Shown piece after piece: positions 46,603-64,000 of a stretch of DNA of 64,000 bases. Every line of letters starts with the position of its first letter. The first letter of the stretch is position 1. The translations under genes and the position numbers were made by a program. The notes under the pieces were generated by a model. The model was given only the letters and a program-made list of their open reading frames with translations, ran no database searches and was not told where the DNA came from. Location: the NCBI GenBank assembly GCA_903862655.1, contig CAIOZA010000072.1:3926-67925 (forward strand). The letters run 5' to 3'. The stretch comes from an uncultured Ignavibacteria bacterium (GTDB taxonomy: Bacteria > Bacteroidota > Ignavibacteria > Kapaibacteriales > UBA2268).

Positions 46603-46892
46603 TAATCCTGTCAACCGAAGCTTCCATCATTCCAGTACTTTCGCTCATTCTGAATTCCAAATTTAAATAAAAAATATAAATCCAAATCCAAATTCAGGAT
46701 TATCCTTACCAATGTGCACTTCTTCCTCTCTTCGTATTATTTACAGCTAAGGTTGAGATTCATAAATTTACCTAAATGTCTAACAGAATTAATTTTTGTT
46801 ATTAGGCAATTCTTCATTTGAAATTCGGAATAATTTTTCTTAATTTAAGTCCGCCTCAAATTAATAAATCAAAAATTTCGTTTCTTTATATG

Positions 46893-47633: not shown

Positions 47634-47682
47634 TGTAAAAAAAAGTCAAAAAAGCATTTTAATTTTTTAAGAGTAAATTTAC

Positions 47683-49290: not shown

Positions 49291-50418
49291 ATGATTGATA
49301 AATTTGTGCAATGGGAAAAAAATCGACATCAATATGCTAAAGACTGGAAGGCTAGGACTGGTGGCAAGGTTATGGGTTACTTTTGCACCTATGTTCCCGA
49401 AGAAATTCTTTATGCTGCAGATATATTGCCTGTTAGGATATTGGGAAGTCACGAACCTCACGATGTGACTGAAGCTCATATATTTGGAATGTATTGTCCA
49501 TTCAGCCGCGACTGCCTGGCTCAGGGATTGAAAGGACGCTATGACTATCTTGACGGCATTATGATTGCCCAGTCGTGTCTTCACATCAGGCAAGCATATA
49601 CAAGCTGGACCAAACACATACCGGTTGATTTCGAGTACTATCTGCCTATGCCAAATAACGTGCAGAGTCCTCATGCAACTCCATATCTAACTGAAGAAAT
49701 TACTCAGTTCAGAAAAGCCCTTGAAAAATGGATTGGAAGAGAGCTGACCGATGAAAATATCCAGAATGGCATTGATATAATGAACGAAAACCGTGCTCTT
49801 ATGCACGAACTATATACCTACAAAAAAAATGACAATCCACCTGTTTCCGGTGCTGACACTATGGAAATTGCAATTTCTCAGCAGATGGTTGACAAAAGAG
49901 AACACACTCAGGCATTAAAGGAATTGCTCGCAGAGCTTAGTGGAGGCAAATCATATTCTAAGAATTCAGGTACTCGATTGATGGTGCTTGGTAGCGAAAA
50001 CGACGATATCGCCTTTATTAAGATGGTAGAATCAGTTAATGGAACAGTCGTCGCTGACGATCACTGCATCGGAACACGCTACTTCTGGAATAACGTGAAA
50101 CCAAACGAAAATTTGGTAGAATCAATCGCTACAAGATATATTGAACGTCCGGCATGCCCAAGTAAGGACTGGATTGACAGAACCAGAATACCCCACATTC
50201 TCTCAATGGCTAAAGAATTTGATGTAAAGGGAGCTATTGTAATTCAGCAGAAGTTCTGCGATCCACATGAACTTGATATACCCGCGATTACAAAAGCATT
50301 GCAGGCTAATGATATCAAAACGTTGTTCCTCGAGTTCGATGTAACAGTGCCAATCGGTCAATTTAAAATCCGTGTTGAAGCATTCCTGGAAATGCTTCAA
50401 GAAGATGATTTATTCTAA
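49291..50418 (+). CDS. 2-hydroxyacyl-CoA dehydratase / class-I benzoyl-CoA reductase family, small catalytic subunit (HgdB/BcrC/BzdN-like)
   Basis: AAGGAG RBS. N-terminal GYFCTYVPEEILYAADILPVRILG typical of this family. 375 aa. Confidence 0.8.
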   Translation: MIDKFVQWEKNRHQYAKDWKARTGGKVMGYFCTYVPEEILYAADILPVRILGSHEPHDVTEAHIFGMYCPFSRDCLAQGLKGRYDYLDGIMIAQSCLHIRQAYTSWTKHIPVDFEYYLPMPNNVQSPHATPYLTEEITQFRKALEKWIGRELTDENIQNGIDIMNENRALMHELYTYKKNDNPPVSGADTMEIAISQQMVDKREHTQALKELLAELSGGKSYSKNSGTRLMVLGSENDDIAFIKMVESVNGTVVADDHCIGTRYFWNNVKPNENLVESIATRYIERPACPSKDWIDRTRIPHILSMAKEFDVKGAIVIQQKFCDPHELDIPAITKALQANDIKTLFLEFDVTVPIGQFKIRVEAFLEMLQEDDLF

Positions 50419-50433
50419 TTAGAAAGGAAAATA

Positions 50434-51738
50434 ATGTCTATACCTACTTATAAAACTGAAACTTTAAAATGCTGGAATAAAGCTAAAGAAATTCGTAATG
50501 ATTTCTATACAAATTATGCAAGTGCTCATGAAAAAGGCGGATTGAGATGGGCTGGTGGTGCGTGGAGCTTTGGAGCTATCCCCGCCGGACTCGGAAATGA
50601 TATCTTCCCCATCACCGGAGAACCATACGGAGCAAGCATTGCATTCAATAAAGAATTTTCTTTGCGTTGCCTCGAAGCAACTGAAAAAAAAGGTTATGCA
50701 CGCGATCTTTGTTCATACATGCGCTCATATTGGGGATCAATCATCCTTGATGAATATGCTTTTGGCGGAAAGTTTCCAAAACCTGATTTTATGTGGCAGG
50801 ATCATATTTGCTGCAGTCATTCCAAATGGTATCAGGTCGCTTCTGAATTGGAAGGTGGAATACCAACGTACAGCATAGATGTTGCAGTTGGTCCATACAA
50901 TAGTGTTTCTGATAGTAAAATTGAGTATTTAGTCAATCAGATGCACGACGGGATTGAATGGCTCAAGAAAACAACAGGTAGAGAATATAACGATGATCTT
51001 CTCATCGAAGCTGTAAATAACGAATGTCGCGCAACAGCTCTGTGGGCTGAGATTTGCCTTTTGAATATGACCGTACCAACTCCAATTGACGAAAAGAGTA
51101 TGTACTCTCTATATGTTCTCGGAACATTAGAAAAACACTCAAAGGTCGTCGCAGACTTTTATGAGGAACTTCTTGATGAAGTAAAATACAGAGTCGCAAA
51201 TGGAATTGGTGCAATTGCACACGAAAGATGCAGATTGATGTCAGATACACAGCCACCTTGGGGATTTCTCAGCGTATTCAGATATCTCGAAAAATTTGGA
51301 GCTGTATCCGTTGGTTCACTTTATACATTTGGATTGATTGGTGTTTGGGAAGATAAGCCCGATGGTACATGGGGACCTCGCACCACACCCAAGGAATTAG
51401 GTATAGATATCACAACCCGCGATCAGGCTTTGAAAATTCTCGCCGACTGGAATCTCAGCAAACCAGAGTGGCAACACTTCTACTCACCACACCTGAAAAG
51501 CGATATGATGATTAAAATCGCCAAGCAATGGAAGATCGACGGTGTGTTACTTCACTACAACCGCGGTTGTGAAGGTCTATCCCTCGGTATTGCTGAAAAT
51601 CGTCTTGCATTGATTGAAGCTGGATATCCTGTTATGGCTTTCGAAGGTAACATGGGCGATGAACGTGAATTCGATGAAGCTAAAACAATGGGCAGAATTG
51701 ATTCCTTTATGGAAACATTGGGAATGACCATTATTTAA
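50434..51738 (+). CDS. 2-hydroxyacyl-CoA dehydratase / benzoyl-CoA reductase family, large catalytic subunit (HgdA/BcrB/BzdO-like)
   Basis: [25 protein letters not shown] motif. 434 aa. Confidence 0.8.
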
Positions 51739-51764
51739 TTTTCAAATTTTAAAAGGAGCTTAAT

Positions 51765-52526
51765 ATGATAAATGTTGGAATAGATGTCGGGGCTAAGAAT
51801 ATTAAAATCGTTATTGTCAATGGACAGGAAATAATCGCCAAAGGCAAGGTCCTGTCTGGTTTTGAAACTAAGGAAACAGTTATGGCTTTATACGATCAAC
51901 TTCTTGGCGAAGCAAATGTGACTAAAGATCAGATTAATCTGATAACTTCAACCGGTAGCGGAAGAAAAGCCGTGGACTTTGCACAAAAGAGCGTTACTGA
52001 AGTTACAGCTGCTGCTAAGGGAGCTACAACTCTCTATCCTAATGTACATTGCGTTATTGATGTCGGTGCCGAAGAAGGAAGATCTATTCGAGTCGATTCA
52101 AACGGGAAGATTGTCGATTTCGCATTGAATGAGAAATGCGCAGCCGGTGCAGGTGCTTTTATCGAATCGATGGCACGTGCTCTTGAGGTATCCATAGAAG
52201 ATTTTGGTATGCTTTCCCTTCAGTCCGACAGGGAAATTCCTATGAATGCTCAGTGTGCCGTATTTGCAGAATCTGAAGTAGTATCGCTTCTGCACTCCAA
52301 AACGGATAAAAAAGATATAGCAAAAGCTGTCAACGATGCTGTTGCCTCTCGTATCACATCGATGACACGTAAGGTTGGATTCGAAAACGATATAGAGCTC
52401 ATCGGCGGTATGGCTAAGAATACAGGGTTCATCAATGCCTTAAAAAAAGGACTCGACTCTGAAATTATTGTCCCTGAAAACGCAGAATACGTCACTGCTT
52501 TCGGTGCCGCTATTTATAATGATTAA
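51765..52526 (+). CDS. CoA-substrate-specific enzyme activase (HgdC/BcrD/BadG-type ASKHA ATPase with bridging [4Fe-4S])
   Basis: Aligns along its length with Acidaminococcus HgdC: GIDVG...TGSGR, NEKCAAGAGAF, VFAESEVVS, GGMAKNTG. 253 aa. Confidence 0.9.
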   Translation: MINVGIDVGAKNIKIVIVNGQEIIAKGKVLSGFETKETVMALYDQLLGEANVTKDQINLITSTGSGRKAVDFAQKSVTEVTAAAKGATTLYPNVHCVIDVGAEEGRSIRVDSNGKIVDFALNEKCAAGAGAFIESMARALEVSIEDFGMLSLQSDREIPMNAQCAVFAESEVVSLLHSKTDKKDIAKAVNDAVASRITSMTRKVGFENDIELIGGMAKNTGFINALKKGLDSEIIVPENAEYVTAFGAAIYND

Positions 52527-52562
52527 AAATATATTTATTTCAAATAAAATTGGAGGTTTTTA

Positions 52563-53429
52563 ATGGCTAAAGAATTCTGGCGTTGGAAAGAATATAATTG
52601 GAAAAGCGAAACAATAGATTGGAAAGATGGTAACACTGTATCTTGTGGTATTGATGTTGGTTCAGTTAGTTCTCAGGCAGTCATCCTCGTAGATGGCGAA
52701 TTATATGCCTATTCAAGTATGCGTACCGGATCTGACAGCCCTATGAGTGCAACTAATGCAATGAATTGGGCTTTGGAAGATACAGGTATGACTCAGGATA
52801 ATGTCCATTACGTTGTCGGTACTGGTTATGGAAGAGTTAATGTTCCATTTGCTAACAAAACTATTACTGAAATTGCATGCCATGCCAGAGGAGCTAATCT
52901 GATGTATGGCAATACTGTTCGCACAATCCTCGATATGGGTGGACAGGATTGTAAAGCCATTCGTTGCGATGAAAAAGGTAAAGTTACTAACTTTTTAATG
53001 AATGACAAATGTGCAGCAGGAACCGGGCGTGGTATGGAAGTATTTGCAGATCTGCTCTCGATTCCAATCGAAGATGTGGGTGAATTATCCTTCCAGGTCG
53101 ATGAAGAGCCACCTCCCGTCAGCAGCACTTGTGTCGTTTTTGCTAAAACAGAAGCAACAGGACTTCTTCGCGAAGGTTGGCCCAAGAATAAAGTTATAGC
53201 TGCTTACTGTTCCGCTATGTCCCATAGAGTGGTCACTTTGCTTCAGCGTATTGGCGTTGAAAGTGATTTCGTTATTACCGGCGGAATTGGAAAGAATGTT
53301 GGAATAGTCCGCAGATTATCACAGGAACTTGGTTTCGAAACACTCAAAACTAACTATGATTCACAGATCGCCGGTGCTTTGGGTGCCGCATTGTTTGGAA
53401 GAGCTCTTGCAGAAAAAGCTAGAAATTAA
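52563..53429 (+). CDS. Second, distinct activase-type ATPase (BcrA/BzdQ/BadF-like partner)
   Basis: GIDVGSVSSQ, NDKCAAGTGRG, VFAKTEATG, GGIGKNVG. Paralog of the preceding gene with an approx. 25-aa N-terminal extension. Confidence 0.85.
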   Translation: MAKEFWRWKEYNWKSETIDWKDGNTVSCGIDVGSVSSQAVILVDGELYAYSSMRTGSDSPMSATNAMNWALEDTGMTQDNVHYVVGTGYGRVNVPFANKTITEIACHARGANLMYGNTVRTILDMGGQDCKAIRCDEKGKVTNFLMNDKCAAGTGRGMEVFADLLSIPIEDVGELSFQVDEEPPPVSSTCVVFAKTEATGLLREGWPKNKVIAAYCSAMSHRVVTLLQRIGVESDFVITGGIGKNVGIVRRLSQELGFETLKTNYDSQIAGALGAALFGRALAEKARN

Positions 53430-53457
53430 AAATTTGATATAAATTGAGATAAATATC

Positions 53458-53745
53458 ATGATTGCAAATTTTGGATACAAAGACGGATCAGGGGATTTCT
53501 ATATTAGTATCGATACCGATAAGTGCAATGGATGCGGTGATTGCATTCCTGCATGTCCCGTTGGTCTGTTGCAGATACGGGAGAATGAATATGATCCTAT
53601 GGCCGATGACAATATGGTAGTAGTACTCGAAGAGCATAGAAAGAAAATTAAATATTCATGTGCTCCTTGCAAAAATGAAGGTAAAGATAGTATCTTACCT
53701 TGTGTTAAGGTATGTCTGCCTAATGCAATTACACATTCCTGGTAA
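53458..53745 (+). CDS. Ferredoxin ([4Fe-4S] Cys cluster protein)
   Basis: CNGCGDCIPACP canonical 4Fe-4S motif plus a second Cys group CAPC...C...C. 95 aa. Confidence 0.7.
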   Translation: MIANFGYKDGSGDFYISIDTDKCNGCGDCIPACPVGLLQIRENEYDPMADDNMVVVLEEHRKKIKYSCAPCKNEGKDSILPCVKVCLPNAITHSW

Positions 53746-53760
53746 TTATTAGGGATTTAA

Positions 53761-56322
53761 ATGGATAAAATATCATTAAAGATAAATGGAATTGATTTGA
53801 CAGTCGATTCAGGTACAACTGTCTTAAATGCCGCTCGCAATGCCGGTGTATTTATACCCGTATTGTGCAGCCATCCTGATTTTGGATCATTCCAGACAAT
53901 CCAGTTGAGTGATTTCATTTATCAGGGTAACAACCGTATTGAAAGCGATCCAGACGCTGATATTACAAAATTACGTGGTTGTGGCATTTGTCTCGTTGCT
54001 GATGAAAATAATAATACTTTGATTCCTGCTTGTAAAGCTGTTGTTGAAGACGGAATGGCAATTCAGACAGATTCTGAAGTAATTAAGAAAAAGCGTCAGG
54101 AAAATCTTGCTGTAATTCTTAGCACACATCCTCATTCCTGCCTCACATGCAGCCAGCATGAAGGATGTATTCCAATGACAGATACATGTGCGGGGAATGT
54201 AAATACAATTGATCGCTGCTGCGCTTTGCTTAACAGATGTGAGATTCAGAAAATTGCAGATTATGTTGGTATTCCTGGGGAAACACAAAGATACATTCAC
54301 GGAAATCTACCTGTGGTTGATGATGATCCATTGTACAAAATTGATTACAATCTCTGTATCTCGTGCGGACGTTGTGTTCGTGTATGTCAGCAGGTAAAGG
54401 GTGTTTTCGCACTCGGAGCCGTTATTAAGGCTGGCAAACTGTTGATTGGCACTAGCGGTGGTCCTGGATTCAACTCTGCAGAATGTAAATTCTGCGGCTC
54501 CTGTGTGGAGGTATGCCCCACGGGATCATTGATGGATAAACGAGTCTACCGTCTTAAAGATGTTAATGAATTTGTTCCTTGTCGTGCCAATTGCCCGGGA
54601 GATGTAGATATACCTCAGTATCTGCGTCTTGTCTCCGAAAATAAACTTGACGAGGCGGCAGAAGTTATTGCTTCCAGACTTACTTTCCCATCAGTATTAG
54701 GCAAGGTATGTTTCCATCCTTGCGAAAGTACATGTAAACGTAATGAAGTCTCTGAGATTCTCAATGAGAATAAAGAAGCAGTTAATATTCGCATGATCAA
54801 GGATTATGCTATGACCTACGGTCATCTTCAAAAAGTTGAAAAACCATCCTATACATCAGGAAAAAAAGTATCTGTTATCGGTGCCGGTCCTGCCGGATTG
54901 ACTGCGTCTTATATCCTTGCTATGAAAGGGCATGCTGTTACTCTTTATGAGAAAGAGGATAAATTAGGCGGAATGCTGCGTTACGGGATTCCACGTTACC
55001 GTCTCCCAGGTGAGATATTGGACAAAGATCTCGATCGGTTGATGGAATCAGGCATGCAGGTTGTCACTGGTAAAACCTTTGGAAAAGATATCACTTTTTC
55101 TGATTTGAAAAATAACGGTAGTGATGCAGTCTTTATAGCAACCGGACTGTCAAAAAGCCGAAAACTCCCGTCTGATGGAGCTTCTAATGCAAATGTTATT
55201 GATGGGATGGATTTTCTGAACGATCTGAATAAGAACAATCTTGATTTGAATTATTTTGAGAACCAAACTGTTGTTATTATTGGTGGTGGTAACGTAGCCA
55301 CTGATGCTGCTAGATGTGCTGTTAGACTAAAAGCTAAGAAAGTAAGGATTATTTGTCTGGAGTCCAACAGTGAGATGCCTGCTTATCCGGAAGAAATAAA
55401 AGAAGCAAAGGAAGAAGGAATAATAATCAAGAATGGCTGGGGAGTTAATTCCATTGCTGACATTGGTAATTCGGAATTAGAAATCAATTTAAAGAAATGT
55501 ACTTCAGTTTTTAATGATACCGGGGCATTTTCTCCATCATTCAATGAATCTGTTAGTGAATCTGTAACGTGTAATAAAATTATTACCTGTATCGGGCAAC
55601 AATCAGATCCGATAGTGGCTAATGATGAGCAGATCAATAAACTCATTCATCATGGTTTAATCAAAGTAAATTCTGAAACTCTTCAGACCGACATCAGAGG
55701 ACTTTATGCAGGTGGAGATTTTGTTTCGGGTCCGGCATCAGTTATTGATGCTGTCGGAGCCGGACGAAAGGCTGCCATTTCTATTGATGTTTTCCTGGGT
55801 GGGGATGGCAATATCGAATTCAATCAAAATCTTGATGATTCATTTGATATGTTCATCGGACGTGAGGAAGGTTTCAACAAGCTGAACAGAATGTATGCCG
55901 AACTGATTGATCCTGATCAACGAGTAGACTCCTTTGTCGGAGTTGAGCAGACTTTAAATGAAAACAATGCATTGTGCGAGGCTAGCCGTTGTCTCCAATG
56001 CGATCTAAGAATGAAGCTTGGGCACAATCCAATGCCGCCTGAGAAATATATTAAATTTCATCCTGAATTTATTTCTGTTGTACCCGATATGGCAGGTGTA
56101 ATTCAGCTTCTCGATGACAAAAAGGAAGTCTTCTTTATTAAGGGAAGCGATAATCTAAAGCAATTTATACAAGAATTGCTCGATGATGGAAAAGAAGCTT
56201 CATACTTTATTTATGAAGAAGAACCTATGTACACAAAGAGAGAAAGCGAACTTTTACAGCAATATCTGCAGAAACATGGCAAAATGCCAGATGCAGGTGA
56301 CGATTTGGATGATTTGTTTTAA
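53761..56322 (+). CDS. Multidomain flavo-iron-sulfur oxidoreductase: NuoG/FdhA-like N-terminal [2Fe-2S]+[4Fe-4S] domain fused to GltD/NfnB-like NAD(P)H-dependent FAD subunit, with approx. 150-aa C-terminal extension
   Basis: 2Fe-2S ferredoxin-like start (LCSHPDF...CGICLV). His-ligated cluster HPHSCLTCSQHEGC. Two 4Fe-4S motifs CISCGRCVRVC and CKFCGSCVEVCP. GltD-type CRANCPGD / CFHPCESTC. Dinucleotide fold VSVIGAGPAGLTAS and second GGGNVATDAAR. Confidence 0.8.
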   Translation: MDKISLKINGIDLTVDSGTTVLNAARNAGVFIPVLCSHPDFGSFQTIQLSDFIYQGNNRIESDPDADITKLRGCGICLVADENNNTLIPACKAVVEDGMAIQTDSEVIKKKRQENLAVILSTHPHSCLTCSQHEGCIPMTDTCAGNVNTIDRCCALLNRCEIQKIADYVGIPGETQRYIHGNLPVVDDDPLYKIDYNLCISCGRCVRVCQQVKGVFALGAVIKAGKLLIGTSGGPGFNSAECKFCGSCVEVCPTGSLMDKRVYRLKDVNEFVPCRANCPGDVDIPQYLRLVSENKLDEAAEVIASRLTFPSVLGKVCFHPCESTCKRNEVSEILNENKEAVNIRMIKDYAMTYGHLQKVEKPSYTSGKKVSVIGAGPAGLTASYILAMKGHAVTLYEKEDKLGGMLRYGIPRYRLPGEILDKDLDRLMESGMQVVTGKTFGKDITFSDLKNNGSDAVFIATGLSKSRKLPSDGASNANVIDGMDFLNDLNKNNLDLNYFENQTVVIIGGGNVATDAARCAVRLKAKKVRIICLESNSEMPAYPEEIKEAKEEGIIIKNGWGVNSIADIGNSELEINLKKCTSVFNDTGAFSPSFNESVSESVTCNKIITCIGQQSDPIVANDEQINKLIHHGLIKVNSETLQTDIRGLYAGGDFVSGPASVIDAVGAGRKAAISIDVFLGGDGNIEFNQNLDDSFDMFIGREEGFNKLNRMYAELIDPDQRVDSFVGVEQTLNENNALCEASRCLQCDLRMKLGHNPMPPEKYIKFHPEFISVVPDMAGVIQLLDDKKEVFFIKGSDNLKQFIQELLDDGKEASYFIYEEEPMYTKRESELLQQYLQKHGKMPDAGDDLDDLF

Positions 56323-56334
56323 GAGGTTAATTTT

Positions 56335-56541
56335 ATGAATGAAATAATATTCAATGAGTCCGAATGGACAAGAAGAAATGTTGCCGAGGAACCGCGTTTG
56401 ACCGAATTGGTCGATCTATACACCGAATTGGGATTCGAGGTCTATCTGAAGGAAGTTGGCAAGGAAGAATGTCCATCTGACGACTGCACAACATGTTTGA
56501 TGGCTAGCCCCGATAAGTACAAGGTTATTTTTACAAGATAA
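56335..56541 (+). CDS. Small hypothetical protein (68 aa, Cys-containing)
   Basis: AAGAGG RBS 8 nt upstream. CPSDDCTTC. Sandwiched between the oxidoreductase and the acyl-CoA synthetase. Confidence 0.35.
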   Translation: MNEIIFNESEWTRRNVAEEPRLTELVDLYTELGFEVYLKEVGKEECPSDDCTTCLMASPDKYKVIFTR

Positions 56542-56567
56542 AATTTTAGAAATCAGAAAGTACATTT

Positions 56568-58643
56568 ATGCTTCAATCATTATTCGAACCGAGATCTGTT
56601 GCTATTATCGGAGCTTCAACGAAAGAATTGTCTATCGGTAATGTGATTATCAAAAATCTGCAAAAATTTAATTTTACAGGAAATATATACCCAATTAATC
56701 CAAAAGCACCTGATGTTCGCGGAATCAAAGCCTATAAAACGATTTCTGATGTACCTGAAGATATCGATGTTGTTCACTTGGTTATTCCCCCAGATAGAGT
56801 ACCTGATGCAATAGAAGAATGTGGCAGGGTGGGAGTTAAAAATGTTATCATCAATACTGCCGGATTTAAAGAAATGGGCGAGCATGGAGCTGCATTACAA
56901 AATGATTTTGTCGCCCGTGGTAAGAAATATGGCGTTAGAATGTTTGGTCCTAATTGTCAGGGTATAATCAATACAGATCCAGAATTTAATGCTTATTGTG
57001 ACTTTACTTTTACTTATCCAAAGCCCGGAAATATTTCAATTGTGGCTCAGAGTGGGGGAGTCGGAGCTGTTATTATGCAGAATATCTTCGATCTCGATGT
57101 CGGAATGCGAATGTATGCTTCCAATGGAAACGCCTGCGATATCTCGATACCCGAAATAATTAAATATTGGGGAGATGATGACGAGACTAAGGTTATCATA
57201 CTCTATATCGAAAGCCTTGATGATCCTGGTTATTTTATGGATGTTGCCAGAGAAGTTGCGGCTAAGAAGCCAATCCTGGCGATGAATGCGGGTAGAACAC
57301 TTGAAGGAGCTAAAGCCGCTACATCTCATACCGGCGGTCTTGCCGGAGGAATTGTAACAGATCTGATTTTCAAAAAAACCGGAATCTTATCATTCAAAGA
57401 TACTCAGGAAATGTGTCAGGCAGCTATCGCATTCGCGGCTCAGCCGATTCCACGTGGTAAACGTGTTGGGATGATTACCAACACCGGAGGTCCGGCAATC
57501 ATTGCTACTGATGAACTTGTCGATGGTGGACTCGAAATTCCCGAACTTTCAGCAAAAGCCGAAGAAGTTCTGAAAAAGACTATGTTTGCATCTGCATCGA
57601 TTAACAATCCGATTGATGTTGTCGCTACTGCTGGCGCACCTGAGTTCAGAAGTGCACTGGATGTGATGATGAACGAAGAACAGATTGATAGTATTTATAT
57701 AAATTTTGTAACACCGCCTTTTGTGGACTGCGAAAGTGTAGCAAAAGAATTTGCTGAGGTGTCATCTAAACGCATTAAACCTATTGTCTGCAATTATATG
57801 ACTGATAAAGCTCAGTGGGTTGAAACAACAAAGATTCTGAGCGATGGCGGAATTCCTTTCTATGATTTCCCTGGCACGGCAGCCAAAGCTCTTGTCGCTC
57901 TTACCAAATACTATGAATTAAAATCCAGAGATAAAGGAACCATACCTGATTTTAAAGATATTAATGCCGATGCTGTTAGTGCAATCATAAGTAAAGCCAA
58001 GGCAGAAGGACGTGAAATTCTTTCATCTTTTGAAGTTTATGCAATTCTAGATTATTATAATATTCCAACTTCGGAGTGGTTCATTGCCGAGAACAAAGCC
58101 GATGCTATGCTCGGAGCCGAGAAAATTGGTTATCCGTTAGTGCTAAAAGCTGACGCACCGGAGCTTGTGCACAAAAGCGATGCAGGCGGTGTGGTTCTAA
58201 ATCTGGCAAGTGCTATTGCTTTCTCCTCTGCTGTGGCTCAAATGTCACAGAAATTCAGTGATATCAAGCATAATTATTTCATACAGAAATTCATGCCGGG
58301 TGGAAAGGAACTCATTATCGGTGCTAAATCTGAAAAAGGTGTTGGGCACATGATTATGTTCGGTATGGGCGGCATTTATGTAGAAGTTTTAAAGGATGTG
58401 TGTTTTGAACTTGCTCCTATTAGTGATACAGAAGCTCTTGAGATGATTACTTCAATCAAAATGTACCCGATTATCAAGGGTGTGCGCGGTGAGAAAGGTT
58501 TGAATATTCAATCAATTATGGATGTTATACTCAAAATCTCGAAGCTTGTTCAAAATCATCCTGAAATTTTGGAACTTGATTTGAATCCTGTCATGGCTTT
58601 TGAAAACTCTGTGGCAGTCGTTGACGCAAGAATTAAAATATAA
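56568..58643 (+). CDS. ADP-forming acyl-CoA synthetase (NDP-forming, fused alpha/beta: CoA-binding + ligase-CoA + ATP-grasp)
   Basis: N-terminal PRSVAIIGAS...NIYPINP CoA-binding fold, GPNCQGI, catalytic-His region SHTGGLAG, C-terminal ATP-grasp_5 (GYPLVLKADAPELVHKSDAGGV). 691 aa. Confidence 0.85.
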   Translation: MLQSLFEPRSVAIIGASTKELSIGNVIIKNLQKFNFTGNIYPINPKAPDVRGIKAYKTISDVPEDIDVVHLVIPPDRVPDAIEECGRVGVKNVIINTAGFKEMGEHGAALQNDFVARGKKYGVRMFGPNCQGIINTDPEFNAYCDFTFTYPKPGNISIVAQSGGVGAVIMQNIFDLDVGMRMYASNGNACDISIPEIIKYWGDDDETKVIILYIESLDDPGYFMDVAREVAAKKPILAMNAGRTLEGAKAATSHTGGLAGGIVTDLIFKKTGILSFKDTQEMCQAAIAFAAQPIPRGKRVGMITNTGGPAIIATDELVDGGLEIPELSAKAEEVLKKTMFASASINNPIDVVATAGAPEFRSALDVMMNEEQIDSIYINFVTPPFVDCESVAKEFAEVSSKRIKPIVCNYMTDKAQWVETTKILSDGGIPFYDFPGTAAKALVALTKYYELKSRDKGTIPDFKDINADAVSAIISKAKAEGREILSSFEVYAILDYYNIPTSEWFIAENKADAMLGAEKIGYPLVLKADAPELVHKSDAGGVVLNLASAIAFSSAVAQMSQKFSDIKHNYFIQKFMPGGKELIIGAKSEKGVGHMIMFGMGGIYVEVLKDVCFELAPISDTEALEMITSIKMYPIIKGVRGEKGLNIQSIMDVILKISKLVQNHPEILELDLNPVMAFENSVAVVDARIKI

Positions 58644-58668
58644 AATTAACAATAAATTAGTAAACAAT

Positions 58669-59868
58669 ATGCATAAAATTGAATCAGCAAAACTCTTAAA
58701 ACAGGTAATGACAGACTATTTCATTGGTCTGGGGAATAAAGAAAAGAAAATTGCCTGGTGCACAAGTGTTGGTCCGGCAGAACTTCTCAGGAGTTTTGGC
58801 TTTGAGGTCTATTTTCCGGAAAATCATGGAGCTCTTCTCGGGACAGCAAGACTCTCGGGTGAGTTCATTCCGGTAGCGGCAAAACTTGGTTATTCCAGCG
58901 AAATATGCTCGTATTTGACAAGTGATATTGGGTCTTATTTGAGCAAGAATACTCCTATGACCAAGCATTACGGCTTAGAGTCTGTTCCCAAACCTGATCT
59001 GCTTGTTTATAATACCAATCAGTGCCGTGAGGTTCAGGACTGGATGATGTTTTATGCAAATGAATTTAAGTGTCCAATCCTTGGCATTCAGTCACCACGT
59101 TATCTCGATGAAGTTAAGACTTCAGATATTGATAATGTTACTGCTCAATTCAAAGCAATGATTCCTACTTGCGAGGATGTTACAGGTCTCAAATTCGATT
59201 TGGATAAATTTAAAGCAACCCTAAAGATAAGTAAGGAAGCAACTCTGCTGTGGAAGCAATGCTTAGAAACTGCCCGTAATGTCCCTGCACCTATTTCATT
59301 CTTCGACAGTACAATCCACATGGGTCCAATAGTAGTTCTTCGTGGTACTGAAGTTGCTAAATCGTATTATGAAGCTTTATTATCTGAGTTGAACACTCAT
59401 GTTCAAGCTGGCTCAGGAATTCTTGAAAACGAAAAAGTTCGCGTGTATTGGGAAGGAATGCCAATCTGGGGCAAACTGCGTTATAGTTCAGACTTATTCT
59501 CAAGTCACAACGCCGCTGTTGTAGCATCAACATATTGTAACAGCTGGATATTCGACGATTTCGATGAAGATCATCCATTCGAATCATCAGCTCTGGCTTA
59601 TTCAACAATCTTCATTAATATGAGCGAAGCTACAAAAACAAATAGAATGATTAAACTAATTGAAGAATATCAGATTAAAGGCGTTGTTTTTCATGAAGCA
59701 AAAACCTGCTTCAATAATTCAAATTCATCGTTCGGAATGCCTCAAAGACTCAAAGAAGCAACAGGTGTTGAAACACTTGTCATCGAAGGCGATCTCTGCG
59801 ACTTGAGATTCTTTTCTGAAGCACAAACCACAACTAAAATTGAAACATTTATTGAACAAATTCTTTGA
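58669..59868 (+). CDS. Third 2-hydroxyacyl-CoA dehydratase-family subunit (HgdB-like, orphan)
   Basis: KIAWCTSVGPAELLRSFGFEVYFPENHGA and EICSYLTSD motifs. Start moved to ATG 58669 (MHKIESAKLL) to avoid overlapping the upstream gene. Confidence 0.75.
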   Translation: MHKIESAKLLKQVMTDYFIGLGNKEKKIAWCTSVGPAELLRSFGFEVYFPENHGALLGTARLSGEFIPVAAKLGYSSEICSYLTSDIGSYLSKNTPMTKHYGLESVPKPDLLVYNTNQCREVQDWMMFYANEFKCPILGIQSPRYLDEVKTSDIDNVTAQFKAMIPTCEDVTGLKFDLDKFKATLKISKEATLLWKQCLETARNVPAPISFFDSTIHMGPIVVLRGTEVAKSYYEALLSELNTHVQAGSGILENEKVRVYWEGMPIWGKLRYSSDLFSSHNAAVVASTYCNSWIFDDFDEDHPFESSALAYSTIFINMSEATKTNRMIKLIEEYQIKGVVFHEAKTCFNNSNSSFGMPQRLKEATGVETLVIEGDLCDLRFFSEAQTTTKIETFIEQIL

Positions 59869-60827
59869 TTCTTATGGATGATAAAAAGTTAAAAATTGGC
59901 GTAATTGGCATGGGGTCAATCGGATTAGTTCTTGCCGTTACTCTTCAGGAAGCCGGATGCGAGGTTGTGGTCTGTGATTACGACAAAGAAAAAATGAACA
60001 GGATACGCAATGAAGGCATTAAGATCATCGGTGCTTTTAATAAAACCTGCTTCTTTGATTATAATTATACATCGGTAGCCGATCTTCTGGAGCATGATGT
60101 CGATATTCTCATAAGTGCTGTCAAGTCCTATCGAGTAGATCTGTTGCTGGATCAGATAGAACATTACAGCCATAACGGCATGTATCTTCTCTGTGCACAG
60201 AACGGAATAGACATCGGATTGAAATATATAAGCCACTTCAACGAATCTCAGATCCTGAGAATGGTTATTAATTTTGCTGGTGTGCTCAATGCACCCAATG
60301 TTTCGAGTGTTACTTTCTTCGAACCACCGAACTATATAGCTTCAATAAATGATGCTCATCCGGAAGTATCAGCAAAACTGGCCGATCTGATGACAAAAGG
60401 CGGGATGCAAACTGATAGCATTGATTCATTCACTATCACCAATCATGTTTGGGCAAAAACTATTCTTATCGCGTCTATCAGCCCGCTGTGCGGAATATCC
60501 AATCTTGTAATCAATGAAGCGCTCAAAAATCCTGATACTATGGAAATCGTCGAAGGAATAATCATGGAATCCCTGGAAGTGGCTAAAGCCGAAGGGATCA
60601 ACCTCGGGGCGAATATTTCAAAACATCTTCTGCGCAGTTTAAAAAATTCCGGAAGTCATCTCCCTTCAATTGCCGTTGATATGTTGAATGGACGTGAGAC
60701 TGAGATTGATTATATTAATGGAAAAATTGTGGAATTTGGAAGAAAACATTACATCCAAACTCCATTAAATCTTATTTTTACTAATTTAGTTAAAGCAATA
60801 ACCAAGAAGAACATGGGGTTACATTGA
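59865..60827 (+). CDS. Ketopantoate-reductase-family (ApbA/PanE) NAD(P)H-dependent 2-oxoacid reductase
   Basis: KIGVIGMGSIGLVLA Rossmann. C-terminal SIAVDMLNGRETEIDYINGKIV (PanE signature). Alternative start ATG 59874. Confidence 0.8.
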   Translation: MILMDDKKLKIGVIGMGSIGLVLAVTLQEAGCEVVVCDYDKEKMNRIRNEGIKIIGAFNKTCFFDYNYTSVADLLEHDVDILISAVKSYRVDLLLDQIEHYSHNGMYLLCAQNGIDIGLKYISHFNESQILRMVINFAGVLNAPNVSSVTFFEPPNYIASINDAHPEVSAKLADLMTKGGMQTDSIDSFTITNHVWAKTILIASISPLCGISNLVINEALKNPDTMEIVEGIIMESLEVAKAEGINLGANISKHLLRSLKNSGSHLPSIAVDMLNGRETEIDYINGKIVEFGRKHYIQTPLNLIFTNLVKAITKKNMGLH

Positions 60828-61912
60828 ACATTAAAATACCCCAACATATTATAGACCTCAAGCCCTACGTGCCGGGCAAGCCAATAGAAGAACTCCAAAA
60901 AGAATTTGGATTCGAAAGAGTCGTTAAACTTGCTTCAAACGAGAATCCGATTGGAGTGTCTCCTTTAGCTATTCAGGCAATGTTCAGTGCTATATACCAG
61001 CTCAACCGTTATCCCGATATTGCCAGTTTGATGCTCAGGCAAAAATTATCAGAATTCTTCAGTATACCATCGGAGAATATAGTAACTGGACATGGTTCAG
61101 AAGCCATCATACAGACTGTAATAAGAGCATTCGTTGCCGACGATGAAGAAGTCCTGACCGTGAACGGCACTTTCGTCGGATTTTATGTTATTTCGAGAGC
61201 TCGCGGTATAAAGATGAATCTTATCCCACTGAAGGAGTACCATTTCGATCTTATGGCTCTGGCAGAGGCTATCACTCCAAAAACAAAAGTAATTTATCTT
61301 GTCAATCCTAATAATCCTACTGGCACCATATTCTCTAAAACTGAGTTCGATGAATTTCTTAAGGTTGTTCCTGATAATATCATTGTCATTGTCGATGAAG
61401 CATATTTTGAATTTGTTAAGGATAATCCTTTGTTCCCGAACACCATGGAATATAAGCAGGATAATATCATAACTCTTCGTTCATTTTCTAAGGCTTATGG
61501 ATTAGCCGGAATCCGCTTGGGTTATGGGTTTGCTAATGCTGAACTTGTCTCCTATATGCTCAAAGTGAGGTTGCCATTTGAACCTGGGATACCATCTCAG
61601 GCTGCCGGCATTGCTGCTTTGATGGATACCCAGTTTTTGGAGTATTATCTGAGCCTTAACCGGCAGGGTAAAGAATTTATCTACAGTTTATATGATGAAC
61701 TTGGTATTCACTATATAAAAACAGAAGCAAACTTCATCATGAGCGTTTTCGAATCTGAAGAGCGTGTGAATGAAATTAATGAAAAATTACTTCGTAAAGG
61801 TGTTATCATCCGTCCTCTCAAACCATTCGGATTGCCGCATTGCTTGAGAGTAACCATAGGGACCCCGGAAGAAAACGAAATTTTTGCGAAACATTTGAAA
61901 TCTATATTTTAA
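60824..61912 (+). CDS. Class-II (HisC-family) pyridoxal-phosphate aminotransferase
   Basis: TTG start overlapping the previous stop. IDLKPYVPGKP, LASNENP, PLP-Lys region RSFSKAYGLAGIRLGY. Confidence 0.8.
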   Translation: MNIKIPQHIIDLKPYVPGKPIEELQKEFGFERVVKLASNENPIGVSPLAIQAMFSAIYQLNRYPDIASLMLRQKLSEFFSIPSENIVTGHGSEAIIQTVIRAFVADDEEVLTVNGTFVGFYVISRARGIKMNLIPLKEYHFDLMALAEAITPKTKVIYLVNPNNPTGTIFSKTEFDEFLKVVPDNIIVIVDEAYFEFVKDNPLFPNTMEYKQDNIITLRSFSKAYGLAGIRLGYGFANAELVSYMLKVRLPFEPGIPSQAAGIAALMDTQFLEYYLSLNRQGKEFIYSLYDELGIHYIKTEANFIMSVFESEERVNEINEKLLRKGVIIRPLKPFGLPHCLRVTIGTPEENEIFAKHLKSIF

Positions 61913-61934
61913 ACTTGAGAATCTTACTAAGATT

Positions 61935-62900
61935 ATGGAACCTAATAAGTTAAAAATCGGAGTGCTGGGACTTGGCCCAGTAGGATTGACTATTGCTGTT
62001 CATTTGAAAGAAGCCGGTTGCGATGTTGCAATTTGCGATGTTATAAAAGAAAAAATTAACTTGATCAGAACAGCCGGTATTCATCTTGTAGAGAAAATTG
62101 AGAAGCAGTGTTACATTAATCATACATATTATTCATTAAAGGATATGCTTGATAGTGGAATTGATATCCTGATATGTGCTTCCAAAGCTTACCATGTTGA
62201 TAAAATTCTTGATGAAATCCGCGAGCACAATCAGAATGAAAAATTGCTGATCATTAGTGCTCAGAATGGAATCGGAGTTTCTCAGATGTATGCTGATCAT
62301 TTCAATGAATCTCAGGTATTCAGAATGGTTGTTAATTTTGCTGGCAACATGAATGCTCCGAACGTTGTGAAGGTGACATTCTTCAATCCTCCGAATTATA
62401 TTGCTTCAAAAGACGACACCAAACGTGATGTATCGGATTGGTTCGCTGCCTTACTCAATTCTGTAAATTTGAGCACATATAGTATTGATTCCTTCACTCT
62501 AAGAAATCGAATCTGGGAGAAAACATTGCTCAATGCAGGGCTTAGTCCTCTTTGCGCCATATCTGGTCTGACTATGCGTGAAGCCATGGTGGATCCTGAT
62601 ACAAATGAAATCGTTGAGAAATTAATTCTCGAATCAATTGCTGTTGCTAAGGCTGAGGAAATAGTTCTGCCGGAGAATTTTGTGAAACTCTGCATCAGAT
62701 ACTTTAAAGGTGCTGGCGACCATTTCCCTTCACTGGCCGTTGACTTGATGAATAAAAGCAAGACTGAAATTGATTTTATGAATGGAAAAATAGTCGAATT
62801 TGGCAGAAAGCATTATATAAGAACTCCTTTAAATCTGACATTAACAAATTTGGTAAAAGCTATTACTCAAAAGAATCTATCTGATGAAAAAGGGGCTTAA
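61935..62900 (+). CDS. Second ketopantoate-reductase-family reductase (paralog of 59865..60827, about half the residues identical by eye)
   Basis: KIGVLGLGPVGLTIA. SLAVDLMNKSKTEIDFMNGKIVEFGRKHYIRTPLNLTLTNLVKAI is near-identical in the C-terminus to the first copy. Confidence 0.8.
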   Translation: MEPNKLKIGVLGLGPVGLTIAVHLKEAGCDVAICDVIKEKINLIRTAGIHLVEKIEKQCYINHTYYSLKDMLDSGIDILICASKAYHVDKILDEIREHNQNEKLLIISAQNGIGVSQMYADHFNESQVFRMVVNFAGNMNAPNVVKVTFFNPPNYIASKDDTKRDVSDWFAALLNSVNLSTYSIDSFTLRNRIWEKTLLNAGLSPLCAISGLTMREAMVDPDTNEIVEKLILESIAVAKAEEIVLPENFVKLCIRYFKGAGDHFPSLAVDLMNKSKTEIDFMNGKIVEFGRKHYIRTPLNLTLTNLVKAITQKNLSDEKGA

Positions 62901-63474
62901 AGGTATTGCCTGCGTTATTCTTTCCGCCGGTCAATCAAGGCGGATGGGTACCCATAAAGCACTGCTGAAGTTTAATGAGAATCTGAGATTTATTGACAGA
63001 ATTATAGAAGTTTATAAAAATTTTGGAATTACTGAAGTTATTGTCGTAGCAGGCGAATCTTTGAAAAATGAACTGAATGTTGCATCTGATGTGAAGATTG
63101 TTACTAATCAGCATCCCGAGTTTGAGAGGTTTTATTCTGTCAAGCTTGCTTGTGAGGCTCTTAGCCGTGAAGTTGAATTGTGTTTCTTGCAGAATTGCGA
63201 CAATCCTTTTGTTAATGAAGAATTGTTAGAGAATATGATTAATCTGCCTGAAGAATCAGATTGTGCTGTGCCTGTTTATATGAATCAAGGTGGACATCCG
63301 GTTTTGATCAATAAAACGATAATTGAATATATCCAGTCAATCGACGGAAAAAATTCAAATCTGAAGGATATTCTTTCAAAATTCAGAACAATGAAGATTA
63401 TCACAAATGATGAAACAGTTAAGATAAATATCAATTCACCTGAAGAATATGAGAAATACTTTATAAATAAATGA
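62884..63474 (+). CDS. MobA/MocA-like molybdenum-cofactor nucleotidyltransferase
   Basis: GIACVILSAGQSRRMG (NTP_transf_3 N-terminal motif). 196 aa. Confidence 0.75.
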   Translation: MKKGLKGIACVILSAGQSRRMGTHKALLKFNENLRFIDRIIEVYKNFGITEVIVVAGESLKNELNVASDVKIVTNQHPEFERFYSVKLACEALSREVELCFLQNCDNPFVNEELLENMINLPEESDCAVPVYMNQGGHPVLINKTIIEYIQSIDGKNSNLKDILSKFRTMKIITNDETVKININSPEEYEKYFINK

Positions 63475-64000
63475 TTGAGATCTACGAAAAATTATCAGAA
63501 CTGGTTCTAAACGGCAGAAGATGTGCCGTTTGTACTGTTGTTGCAACTCAAGGATCTACGCCGAGGAAGACCGGATCCAAAATGATTGTAACAGATGATC
63601 TGAAAATCTATGGTACAATTGGTGGAGGCACTCTCGAAAAACATATAATCGATTTGTGCCCTGGAATAATAAATAAATGCTCATCTGAACTGGTGAAGCT
63701 TAATCTTACTACAGATTTGGCTATGAAATGCGGTGGCTATGTTGAGGTATTTATTGAGCCTGTTTCAACTCCATTCAAACTTTTAATTTTTGGAGGCGGT
63801 CATATTGGTAAAGCACTATCTGAAATTGCTTCCAACCTAAGCTTCAGTGTTTCCGTTATTGATGAACGAACAGAAATCTTTTCAGATTATCGGCAAAATA
63901 ATGTAGATATAATTATTGAAAATTTTGAAGACTATCTTAGCCATATTACAATTGATAATTACACTTTTATCGTTGTTGTTACCAAAGGACACGATACAGA
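63471..64000 (+). CDS. XdhC/CoxI-family molybdoenzyme maturation protein (partial, continues past window end)
   Basis: ATG 63471 overlaps the upstream TGA. N-terminal XdhC_CoxI motif CAVCTVVATQGSTPRKTGSKMIV...GTIGGG. Second-domain Rossmann LLIFGGGHIGKAL. Confidence 0.75.
   Translation, partial: MIEIYEKLSELVLNGRRCAVCTVVATQGSTPRKTGSKMIVTDDLKIYGTIGGGTLEKHIIDLCPGIINKCSSELVKLNLTTDLAMKCGGYVEVFIEPVSTPFKLLIFGGGHIGKALSEIASNLSFSVSVIDERTEIFSDYRQNNVDIIIENFEDYLSHITIDNYTFIVVVTKGHDT

Follow-up and report, generated by a model that had tools for sequence, protein, structure and literature searches.

The PF06050 protein and the benzoyl-CoA reductase upstream of it

The stretch of DNA studied here, 64,000 nucleotides (nt) from an uncultured Ignavibacteria bacterium (contig CAIOZA010000072.1 of assembly GCA_903862655.1; hereafter the window), carries four open reading frames (ORFs) on the plus strand at positions 58669-62900. 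They encode a protein of 399 amino acids (aa) from the PF06050 (HGD-D) family (58669..59868, +; E=1e-57, 197 bits; labelled HGDorph), a protein resembling ketopantoate reductases (KPR-like 1 or KPR1, 320 aa; 59865..60827, +; ApbA_C E=1.6e-27, ApbA E=3.8e-19), a HisC-family class I/II aminotransferase (362 aa; 60824..61912, +; Aminotran_1_2 E=8e-61; TIGR01141 313.6 bits, cut-off 276.55) and a second KPR-like protein (KPR2, 321 aa; 61935..62900, +; ApbA_C E=9e-30, ApbA E=5e-19). This gene content, first described in a sequence-only reading of the window, was confirmed by the ORFs and by Pfam and NCBIfam. Upstream, a gap of 25 nt separates the PF06050 gene from a fused alpha-beta ADP-forming acyl-CoA synthetase (ACD; 56568..58643, +; CoA_binding, Succ_CoA_lig, ATP-grasp_5) that reaches no NCBIfam equivalog, its best match being 4-hydroxybutyrate-CoA ligase (532 vs 1300). 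Overlaps of 4 nt join the PF06050 gene to KPR1 and KPR1 to the aminotransferase gene, 22 nt lie between the latter and KPR2, and KPR2 overlaps a MobA-like gene, which in turn overlaps an XdhC-like gene. From the ACD to the XdhC-like gene the spacing is operon-like, with these two gaps and overlaps of 4 to 17 nt, and the cluster continues past the window end at 64000.

The 399-aa protein had initially been regarded as an HgdB-like orphan subunit. A sequence search of the PDB returned HadB with 170 bits (27% identity), MbdO with 125 and BzdO with 71 bits. When an AlphaFold2 model (pLDDT 82) was compared with Foldseek, HadB (chain A) had a TM-score of 0.86-0.87, BzdO of 0.87 and MbdO of 0.85, and lower values were obtained for DCCP (0.76-0.78) and for beta/N subunits (0.70-0.73). 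In hhalign, BcrB matched over the full length (E=5e-52, 30% identity) and BzdO followed with 1.7e-22; the matches to BzdN and BcrC were only marginal. As sequence, fold and profile all match HadB, BcrB and BzdO and are weaker for beta/N subunits, the protein is of the alpha or catalytic type and not HgdB-like. With the curated models it scored 213 vs a cut-off of 750 for HadB (NF052455), 157 vs 487 for BcrB (TIGR02260), 74 vs 449 for BzdO (TIGR03191) and 53 vs 350 for DCCP (NF040772). Between dehydratase and reductase its sequence does not decide. Its activator is the product of one gene, and it is coupled with a dehydrogenase of the KPR type; both features, described below, point to a dehydratase-like use.

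Five cysteines (C31, C80, C119, C290 and C347) are invariant in 82 sequences of the clade, which share 78 near-invariant residues. C80, C119 and C347 align with the ligands of HadB and BzdO and represent the canonical [4Fe-4S] ligands. C290 and C347 pair with cysteines of the BzdN encoded in the window in the hhalign alignment, and C31, C80 and C119 were placed on BzdN ligand positions by motif comparison by eye. Judged by motif, C31 is the counterpart of Cys36 and C290 that of Cys263 in Aromatoleum BzdN, both of them distal ligands of its [8Fe-9S] cluster (PMC11971306). Five of the six [8Fe-9S] ligand positions carry a cysteine in the 399-aa protein; the sixth does not. The C31/C290 pair is limited to relatives of about 37% identity or more, and remoter family members have V/I/L/T and T/P/S at the two positions. 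The acid-base pair at the [4Fe-4S]-OH2 site of BzdO consists of Glu65 and His131 (PMC11971306). The equivalent of Glu65 is the conserved E51, and the position of His131 is occupied by Val122.

No beta-type gene adjoins the PF06050 gene in the window or in the 80 related loci described below, where other PF06050 genes are BCR (benzoyl-CoA reductase) subunits only. In Deltaproteobacteria, Acidobacteria and Planctomycetes, homologues with 50% identity have only an activator nearby, sometimes together with a KPR and/or an ACD, and no second PF06050 gene. On these grounds, a partner from the upstream enzyme, considered in the sequence-only reading, is not required. It is not an orphaned subunit of that enzyme; it belongs to a distinct conserved clade of single-subunit [4Fe-4S] radical enzymes within the BCR/2-hydroxyacyl-CoA dehydratase (HAD) family and is probably homodimeric.

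The upstream genes at 49291-53429 had been interpreted as a dehydratase with its activators. Judged by equivalog scores, they are instead a bzd-type class I BCR, since BzdN (49291..50418, +) reaches 502 bits with TIGR03190 (cut-off 454), the catalytic subunit BzdO (50434..51738, +) 669 bits with TIGR03191 (cut-off 449) and the ATPase subunit BzdQ (52563..53429, +) 451 bits with TIGR03192 (cut-off 380). They are accompanied by a BzdP-like ATPase subunit (BcrAD_BadFG; 51765..52526, +; PF01869 E=1e-44; TIGR00241 208 bits). Two different ATPase subunits, with a ferredoxin and a reductase alongside, are arranged as in bzd clusters. The window holds three members of the PF06050 family: BzdN, BzdO and the 399-aa protein. 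BzdN is expected to carry a double-cubane cluster; matched by eye and without an alignment, it has six cysteines in contexts like those of the [8Fe-9S] ligands of Aromatoleum BzdN, Cys36/73/100/263/293/327 (PMC11971306).

The BCR, together with a Mo enzyme resembling 4-hydroxybenzoyl-CoA reductase (4-HBCR) and the Had, Oah and Dch genes of related loci, places the four genes in the middle of a long co-directional cluster for the anaerobic breakdown of aromatic acids or amino acids through benzoyl-CoA. Such a setting is oxidative and replaces the reductive Stickland branch that had been proposed before. Neither enoyl-CoA reductase nor electron-transferring flavoprotein (ETF) genes were seen in the window cluster or in L092, a syntenic locus that extends further downstream. 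The reported absence of a CoA-transferase from the cluster extends to the downstream part of L092, and an ACD or AMP-forming ligase is found instead.

Conservation of the module across genomes

Database relatives of the 399-aa protein, 66-87% identical, occur across Ignavibacteria, Kapabacteria, Chlorobi and many Bacteroidia; for the clade as a whole, conservation within Ignavibacteriota and Bacteroidota amounts to 60-87%. Neighbouring genes were mapped with phmmer in 80 genome loci with relatives of 51-80% identity; of the high-GC loci, L082 and L085 were annotated, and L078 and L084 were left out. A class I BCR was scored upstream in 46 of the 55 loci having at least 8 kb of upstream sequence (41 Bcr-type, 5 Bzd-type). 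Since fragmented BCR genes are also present in L022 and L037, about 48 of the 55 loci are situated inside a class I BCR operon. The order ligase or ACD, PF06050, KPR is kept in more than 55 loci: the PF06050 gene is directly preceded by an ACD or an AMP-forming ligase in 64/71 loci and followed by a KPR in 56/65. An HgdC-type activator, free or fused, is present in 48/65 loci, and in 32 of the 65 informative loci it is fused to the KPR (about 617 aa). An exhaustive search of representatives revealed a Myxococcota metagenome-assembled genome (MAG) in which the KPR is fused directly to the PF06050 domain; the fusion is followed by an activator, Fer2, an FAD subunit, a 4-HBCR-like alpha subunit, XdhC and a MobA-like gene. 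Hence, the conserved functional unit consists of PF06050 protein, KPR and activator, usually with a ligase and often with a 4-HBCR-like Mo enzyme and a class I BCR. Two further KPR~PF06050 fusions, P0387 (768 aa) and P0369 (603 aa), have the three canonical cluster cysteines replaced by S/G/T or S/G/S and may be cluster-less derivatives of the family.

Two types of loci can be distinguished. Type A comprises the window and six MAG loci with 77-80% identity. Its order is BzdNOPQ, ferredoxin, an 853-aa protein, a 68-aa ORF, ACD and PF06050, followed by KPR1, HisC, KPR2, MobA, XdhC, ferredoxin, 2-oxoacid:ferredoxin oxidoreductase and the Mo enzyme. Within the window, which ends in XdhC, no HgdC/HadI-type activator was found. 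In L092 the cluster goes on with genes for an HgdC-type activator of 253 aa, a Had-like dehydrogenase, a thiolase and, at its end, a protein of 693 aa without family; the activator gene comes after the Mo enzyme, about 11 kb downstream of the PF06050 gene. By analogy with this locus, the activator of the window lineage is expected at about the same distance, past the window end. The idea that the lineage has no activator of its own and borrows a transiently binding BzdPQ was dropped in view of the L092 gene. Neither Pfam nor NCBIfam assigns a family to the 693-aa protein (L092:16147-18228). Its N-terminus is GxGxxG-like, and its C-terminus bears a very weak likeness to enoyl-CoA hydratases (19 bits to Dch); the hydratase/dehydrogenase that is missing may be this protein.

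Type B, with about 55 loci, has the order BcrCBAD, one ligase, PF06050, KPR plus activator, thiolase, Had, Oah, Dch and FadB. For instance, the Bcr subunits and Had/Oah of L088 score above or near the NCBIfam cut-offs. The ligase is either an ACD or an AMP-forming enzyme of 582 aa, for which no benzoate-CoA ligase appeared among the 25 best NCBIfam matches. Loci with an ACD keep a remnant of an AMP ligase (about 180 aa) beside it, which argues for replacement of the AMP ligase by the ACD in situ and for a single ligase function. Such remnants match only the C-terminal third of the AMP ligase and lie just upstream of the ACD (L026:6220-6774, L058:7101-7679, L067:6984-7523, L072:7143-7688); in L037 both ligases are still intact. 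Some Bacteroidia have an additional ORF of about 160 aa without NCBIfam family between the PF06050 gene and the KPR~activator fusion (L088:11225-11707, L040:11219-11710), and in L040 this ORF is similar to the C-terminal part of the AMP ligase, with 114 bits to that domain. Class I BCR operons with the module were also observed in MAGs labelled Flavobacteriales, Saprospiraceae, Chitinophagaceae and Weeksellaceae (e.g. L037, L038, L044, L050, L054), groups usually regarded as aerobic.

The Mo enzyme sits between KPR and activator in Ignavibacteriaceae and downstream in the type A relatives. Its alpha subunit reaches 955-961 bits with TIGR03194, the model of the 4-HBCR alpha subunit (cut-off 995), and 576-590 bits with the next family; for the fused gamma-alpha subunit of Ignavibacteriaceae the values are 961 and 576. 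Alpha and 2Fe-2S subunits form one fused protein in genomes of the Fibrobacteres-Chlorobi-Bacteroidetes (FCB) group. The FAD subunits are 291-295 aa long and have no four-cysteine loop (L092:9102-9989, L025:12214-13092, L094:11522-12397). We assume that the FAD subunit of the Thauera enzyme has a [4Fe-4S] insertion with four cysteines and that it serves to accept electrons from ferredoxin.

A few loci deviate from both types. L003 holds a 69% identical orthologue of the module (13015-21203) and has no BCR; the neighbouring genes are those of hydantoinase A/B-family proteins, a PALP enzyme, RidA, an acyl-CoA dehydrogenase and a split B12-dependent acyl-CoA mutase, and HdrA/FlpD/NuoEF-like genes are found upstream. 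Being metabolically different, this setting could give a clue to the substrate. In the Kapabacteria assembly GCA_026390695.1 (L001, L090, L093), PF06050, KPR1-HisC and the Mo gamma-alpha gene each stand on their own contig among unrelated genes, the Mo gene of L093 having no FAD subunit next to it. These genes are still 74-81% identical to the orthologues of the window (PF06050, KPR1, HisC) or of L087 (Mo subunit).

The remaining genes of the window cluster include candidates for accessory steps. A short-chain dehydrogenase/reductase (SDR) of the FabG/acetoacetyl-CoA reductase type (46818..47633, +; adh_short_C2 E=3e-59; best NCBIfam matches FabG/PhaB-like, under the equivalog cut-offs) is a candidate 3-hydroxyacyl-CoA dehydrogenase and is followed by a thiolase (acetyl-CoA C-acyltransferase; 47683..48873, +; Thiolase_N/C; TIGR01930 426 bits vs 240). 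Orthologues of both, those of the thiolase with 570-603 bits, adjoin BCR clusters in L016 and L086. Downstream of BzdQ, a small ferredoxin of the 2x[4Fe-4S] type (53458..53745, +; Fer4 family matches) that is kept in all type A loci precedes the 853-aa Fe-S flavoprotein (53761..56322, +; Fer2_4, Fer4, Fer4_20, Pyr_redox_2). The latter combines a 2Fe-2S domain, a NuoG-like 4Fe-4S domain, two ferredoxin-type clusters and a GltD-like NAD(P)H flavoprotein with a C-terminal extension of about 170 aa without family. Its orthologues in type A loci exceed 1100 bits, and it is a candidate for the enzyme that reduces ferredoxin for the Bzd reductase. Between this gene and the ACD lies the 68-aa ORF (56335..56541, +), which has the Cys-rich stretch CPSDDCTTC and no Pfam match; orthologues of 58-74 bits occupy the same place in all type A loci.

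At the other end, a MocA/MobA-like molybdenum-cofactor nucleotidyltransferase (62884..63474, +; NTP_transf_3 E=2e-28; TIGR03310 MocA 98 bits, under the cut-off) is followed by an XdhC-like maturation factor of Mo enzymes that is cut by the window end (63471..64000, +; phmmer 178 bits to the L087 XdhC). In relatives, the MobA-like gene is followed by XdhC and the 4-HBCR-like Mo enzyme. The remaining ORFs of the window that were scanned (about 30) are of housekeeping or FCB type (type IX secretion system (T9SS) sorting domains, TonB receptor, glutamyl-tRNA synthetase, RecG). The Pfam and NCBIfam scans revealed neither his nor pan genes in the window ORFs covered. A promoter and terminator scan of 45400-64000 was uninformative, the counts being equal to those of shuffles (54 vs 58.6; 11 vs 12.0). 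Two leucine-rich-repeat proteins at 24548-25972 (+, 474 aa) and 36154-37104 (-, 316 aa), among secreted proteins with T9SS tails, are unrelated to the cluster.

The KPR-like proteins and the aminotransferase

KPR1 and KPR2 are 54% identical and fall into two separately conserved clades of the tree. They are paralogues, as had been proposed, yet not the product of a recent tandem duplication. KPR2 groups with the type B KPRs and is orthologous to the enzyme that stands with the PF06050 protein in all places. In Kapabacteria, a KPR with 74% identity to KPR1 forms a pair with a HisC orthologue through the same 4-nt overlap, away from PF06050 genes. The arrangement in the window is best read as the insertion of a KPR1-HisC cassette that separates the PF06050 gene from KPR2, its cognate reductase.

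The residues of both proteins were mapped on E. coli PanE (sequence verified against 1YJQ). KPR1, KPR2 and 59 type B KPRs keep K72, N98, K176, E210, S244, D248 and E256. The near-identical C-terminal motif noted in the sequence-only reading is present in both and is the catalytic Ser...Glu motif of the family, equivalent to S244/E256. We take Asn180, Asn184, Asn194 and Asn241 of PanE to bind ketopantoate and Arg31 to contact the 2'-phosphate of NADPH. In both KPRs and 59/59 relatives, N184 is replaced by Ser, N194 by Met or Ile, N241 by His and R31 by Ile, Val or Leu. Position N180 is Asn in KPR2 and all 59 type B KPRs and Ile or Val in KPR1 (for KPR1 the set reads N180 to Ile, N184 to Ser, N194 to Ile and N241 to His), a difference in the predicted substrate pocket that fits the earlier idea of two substrates. 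With TIGR00745, KPR1 and KPR2 reach 164 and 150 bits (cut-off 141), and solved structures of KPR and D-mandelate dehydrogenase are matched with 66-79 bits. From these residues, both appear to be competent dehydrogenases that are unlikely to act as ketopantoate reductases. The KPR family includes D-2-hydroxyacid dehydrogenases, and its enzymes make (R)-2-hydroxyacids, the stereochemistry needed by 2-hydroxyacyl-CoA dehydratases. They have no flavin to split a hydride into single electrons.

In the aminotransferase, K223, R330 and R342 align with K214, R322 and R335 of E. coli HisC. Glu93 replaces Asp85 and Phe117 replaces Tyr110, two residues presumed to contact the imidazole; both replacements are found in 120/120 of the closest homologues. 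The sequence-only reading had set its proposal against a genuine HisC with all histidinol-phosphate-binding residues and further his genes nearby. In favour of the latter, the hisC model is passed, and the Lys that binds pyridoxal phosphate is kept together with both arginines and Tyr15/Tyr63; against it, Asp85 and Tyr110 are replaced and his genes are missing among the scanned ORFs. A function as aromatic amino acid:2-oxoglutarate aminotransferase is proposed only from the gene context, as the residues do not settle the matter. Orthologues sit with KPR1 or with the Mo-enzyme/BCR cluster. That of Ignavibacteria GWF2_33_9 heads a differently arranged supercluster of MobA, XdhC, Mo enzyme, thiolase and, further on, BCR, and a Caldithrix homologue stands alone.

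A proposed route into benzoyl-CoA, its rivals and known systems

The sequence of transaminase, KPR-type (R)-2-hydroxyacid dehydrogenase, synthetase in place of a CoA-transferase and radical dehydratase-like enzyme, as envisaged before, is supported by the order of ligase or ACD, PF06050 and KPR in more than 55 loci, by the fusions of KPR to activator or PF06050 protein and by the recurring KPR1-HisC cassette. That the module converts a 2-oxoacid to an enoyl-CoA in a generic sense is, in our estimation, rather probable. An even chance is given to a specific route, of which we infer every step, from phenylalanine or tyrosine through aryllactyl-CoA and cinnamoyl-CoA to (4-hydroxy)benzoyl-CoA and ring reduction. 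The HisC-like aminotransferase would produce the arylpyruvate, KPR1 or KPR2 would reduce it to (R)-aryllactate and the ADP-forming synthetase would activate it to aryllactyl-CoA. Dehydration by the PF06050 enzyme, primed by its activator, would yield (4-hydroxy)cinnamoyl-CoA, and beta-oxidation with the SDR and the thiolase would then lead to (4-hydroxy)benzoyl-CoA. Finally, the downstream 4-HBCR-like Mo enzyme would remove the hydroxyl group to give benzoyl-CoA, the ring of which would be reduced by BzdNOPQ. Clostridial phenyllactate chemistry would in this way feed ring degradation rather than arylpropionate production.

Several observations make this route plausible. Comparative genomics shows which genes belong to the module, and the PF06050 protein agrees with HadB and BzdO in its fold and its three canonical cluster cysteines. 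The (R) stereochemistry of KPR products matches that of the dehydratases. Each operon has one ligase, and CoA activation of the acid entering the PF06050 step would account for it; a pathway that carries the thioester forward needs a ligase and not a CoA-transferase. The model thus explains the single ligase and uses every enzyme of the type B operon. Score and position of the 4-HBCR-like Mo enzyme suggest a para-hydroxy aromatic substrate such as tyrosine. An origin from amino acids is supported by the recurring KPR1-HisC cassette, by a genome of different arrangement in which HisC adjoins the Mo-enzyme/BCR cluster and by PALP and RidA adjoining the module in L003. A conversion of phenylpyruvate via cinnamoyl-CoA to benzoyl-CoA has only been hypothesised, for another organism (PMC13416013).

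Other observations weigh against the route. The 399-aa protein is as close to the reductase BcrB as to the dehydratase HadB and stays far under every NCBIfam equivalog cut-off, and its extra invariant cysteines C31 and C290, located in the predicted active-site cavity, are unexplained. In the window, no enoyl-CoA hydratase and none of Had, Oah and Dch was found. The aminotransferase scores above the hisC cut-off and has retained both phosphate/carboxylate arginines. The L003 setting without a BCR would suit an aliphatic or glutamate-derived substrate, and the proposed substrate is deduced from the neighbouring genes only. Moreover, KPR~PF06050 fusions fit consecutive steps better, so that ligation might come first and the KPR might act on the 2-oxoacyl-CoA.

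Among the rival explanations, a coincidental neighbourhood with HisC for histidine, KPRs for pantothenate and an unrelated or decaying PF06050 paralogue has next to no chance of being correct. The cut-offs of TIGR01141 and TIGR00745 are passed, but gene order is kept across phyla, genes are fused in several lineages, ketopantoate-binding residues are replaced, no his or pan genes accompany the cluster among the scanned ORFs, and 78 near-invariant residues over 82 sequences attest to the strong conservation of the PF06050 protein. The reductive Stickland-type branch, in which the upstream PF06050 pair and ATPases would be a 2-hydroxyacyl-CoA dehydratase with activators, the orphan one more subunit of beta-like type and an arylpropionate or branched-chain acid the product, is highly improbable. 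A transaminase, a KPR-type reductase and a HAD-family protein do adjoin each other, and D-2-hydroxyacid dehydrogenases are established within the KPR family. However, BzdN, BzdO and BzdQ score above their equivalog cut-offs, and the pair of different ATPase subunits with ferredoxin and reductase has the composition of bzd clusters. Moreover, the orphan is of the alpha type, relatives have Had, Oah and Dch, and enoyl-CoA reductase/ETF and CoA-transferase are missing from the cluster and from L092.

A use of the PF06050 protein as an alternative O/B-type subunit, which would act with BzdN (or BcrC) and the BCR ATPases on a second aryl-CoA, e.g. a substituted benzoyl-CoA, agrees with BcrB as the strongest profile match, with MbdO and BzdO among the top structural matches and with the roughly 48 of 55 loci in BCR operons; the complexes of Bzd-type modules are described as transient only (PMC11971306). 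We nevertheless judge it unlikely, as homologues with all five cysteines lack an N/C-type subunit and have only a one-gene activator of their own (L080, L082, L085, L094), the dedicated HgdC-type activator is kept even beside BcrAD, the KPR fusions would be unexplained, and Val replaces the BzdO His131 equivalent. Slightly less likely still, and about equally so, are two further explanations. The module might link glutaconyl-CoA, an intermediate of benzoyl-CoA degradation in strict anaerobes (PMC13416013), via (R)-2-hydroxyglutaryl-CoA and 2-hydroxyglutarate to 2-oxoglutarate and feed a 2-oxoacid:ferredoxin oxidoreductase, the source of reduced ferredoxin for the ring reductase, or it might run the hydroxyglutarate pathway forward. 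Such an oxidoreductase lies downstream in type A relatives, the ACD could conserve ATP in the reverse direction, and the module of L003 adjoins hydantoinase/oxoprolinase-family and acyl-CoA dehydrogenase genes. On the other hand, neither glutaryl-CoA dehydrogenase nor glutaconyl-CoA decarboxylase was present in any operon seen, the AMP-forming ligase of most operons favours acid activation, the KPR pocket replacements are hydrophobic or His and provide no Arg or Lys for a distal carboxylate, and the Myxococcota link to the 4-HBCR-like enzyme would have no rationale. Alternatively, PF06050 protein and activator, with or without the KPR, might provide ATP-driven low-potential electron delivery or co-catalysis for the 4-HBCR-like Mo enzyme, whose FAD subunit has no [4Fe-4S] insertion. 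The compact Myxococcota locus, running from KPR~PF06050 through activator, Fer2, FAD subunit and Mo alpha to XdhC and a MobA-like gene, the insertion of the Mo enzyme between KPR and activator in Ignavibacteriaceae, the beta subunits of 291-295 aa without four-cysteine loop and the two extra cysteines at double-cubane ligand positions are in line with this, but most Bacteroidia operons with the module show no Mo enzyme in view, the KPR is established to work without a flavin for a single-electron split, and the catalytic-type fold with its Glu51 equivalent argues for an enzyme that converts a substrate.

A broader possibility, doubtful in our view though less so than the rivals above, is a new, probably homodimeric class of BCR/HAD radical enzymes that catalyses an undescribed reaction together with the physically coupled KPR, its own ATPase and, in several lineages, the Mo enzyme. 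Benzoyl-CoA would then be reached by a peripheral route, previously unknown and widespread among Bacteroidota and Ignavibacteriota. Such a reaction could be a conversion, at an unusual Fe-S cluster, of a 2-oxoacyl-CoA or of a 2-hydroxyacyl-CoA, or it could supply the Mo enzyme with electrons at the expense of ATP. With two of the three distal double-cubane cysteines kept, the protein would then be an evolutionary intermediate between DCCP and the catalytic subunits of HAD and BCR. Evolution of the BCR/HAD family from double-cubane ancestors is a current topic (PMC11971306).

Class I BCR operons are common in uncultured Bacteroidota, Ignavibacteriota and Chlorobiota, and nearly all of them have the three-part module. 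A literature search retrieved no published description of a PF06050-KPR-activator module. Should the module be an aryllactyl-CoA dehydratase system, phenylalanine, tyrosine or aryllactates would reach benzoyl-CoA by a new anaerobic route that links the radical-dehydratase chemistry of clostridia with ring degradation. Such a route would also explain the mineralisation of aromatic amino acids by abundant proteolytic FCB bacteria in anoxic sediments and groundwater. For enzymology, the module offers a single-gene member of the BCR/HAD family, an unusual five-cysteine signature and natural fusions.

The Thauera and Aromatoleum pathways of phenylalanine and tyrosine degradation via (4-hydroxy)phenylacetyl-CoA and phenylglyoxylate likewise start with an aminotransferase and end with (4-hydroxy)benzoyl-CoA, 4-HBCR and a class I BCR. 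In contrast to them, no phenylpyruvate decarboxylase or PadBCD-type enzyme was seen here, and the route proposed runs via aryllactyl-CoA, cinnamoyl-CoA and beta-oxidation. With Lactococcus PanE, Enterococcus D-mandelate dehydrogenase (PDB 3WFI) and E. coli KPR, the KPR-like proteins share the ApbA/ApbA_C domains and the equivalents of Lys176, Glu256, Asn98 and Ser244; they differ in the replacement of Asn184/194/241 by Ser, Met/Ile and His and of Arg31 by Ile/Val/Leu, and in genes that are linked or fused to the activator of a radical enzyme.

The PF06050 protein has the fold, the three cluster cysteines, the Glu65 equivalent and the operons in common with BcrB, BzdO and MbdO (PDB 8S02, 9G87). 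Unlike these subunits, it falls under the equivalog cut-offs, has no His131 equivalent, is served by its own single-gene activator and has no N/C-type partner in other phyla. DCCP (PDB 6ENO) and DCCP-R also combine a single-gene enzyme with a single-gene ATPase, and cysteines at five of the six BzdN [8Fe-9S] positions are a further likeness; the sixth cysteine is missing from the PF06050 protein, the NF040772 score (53 vs 350) is far too low, and the TM-score of 0.76-0.78 is below those of HadB and BzdO. A further resemblance is to FldABC/FldI with FldH of Clostridium sporogenes and HadBC/HadI with LdhA of Clostridioides difficile. These systems share with the module the PF06050 alpha-type fold with three [4Fe-4S] cysteines, an HgdC-type ATPase activator and a preceding (R)-2-hydroxyacid dehydrogenase with an aminotransferase, HadB being the best solved match. 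In contrast to them, the module has a single PF06050 gene instead of an alpha/beta pair, the extra invariant cysteines C31 and C290, a KPR-family reductase rather than one of the LdhA/FldH type, and a ligase or ADP-forming synthetase in place of the CoA-transferase. Furthermore, its KPR can be fused to the activator or the enzyme, and it is set in operons for benzoyl-CoA degradation and not for reductive fermentation. Altogether, the module would work like Fld and Had but departs from them in the alpha/beta pair, the CoA-transferase and the equivalog score, and by the criteria for BCR subunits and DCCP its PF06050 protein is neither of the two.

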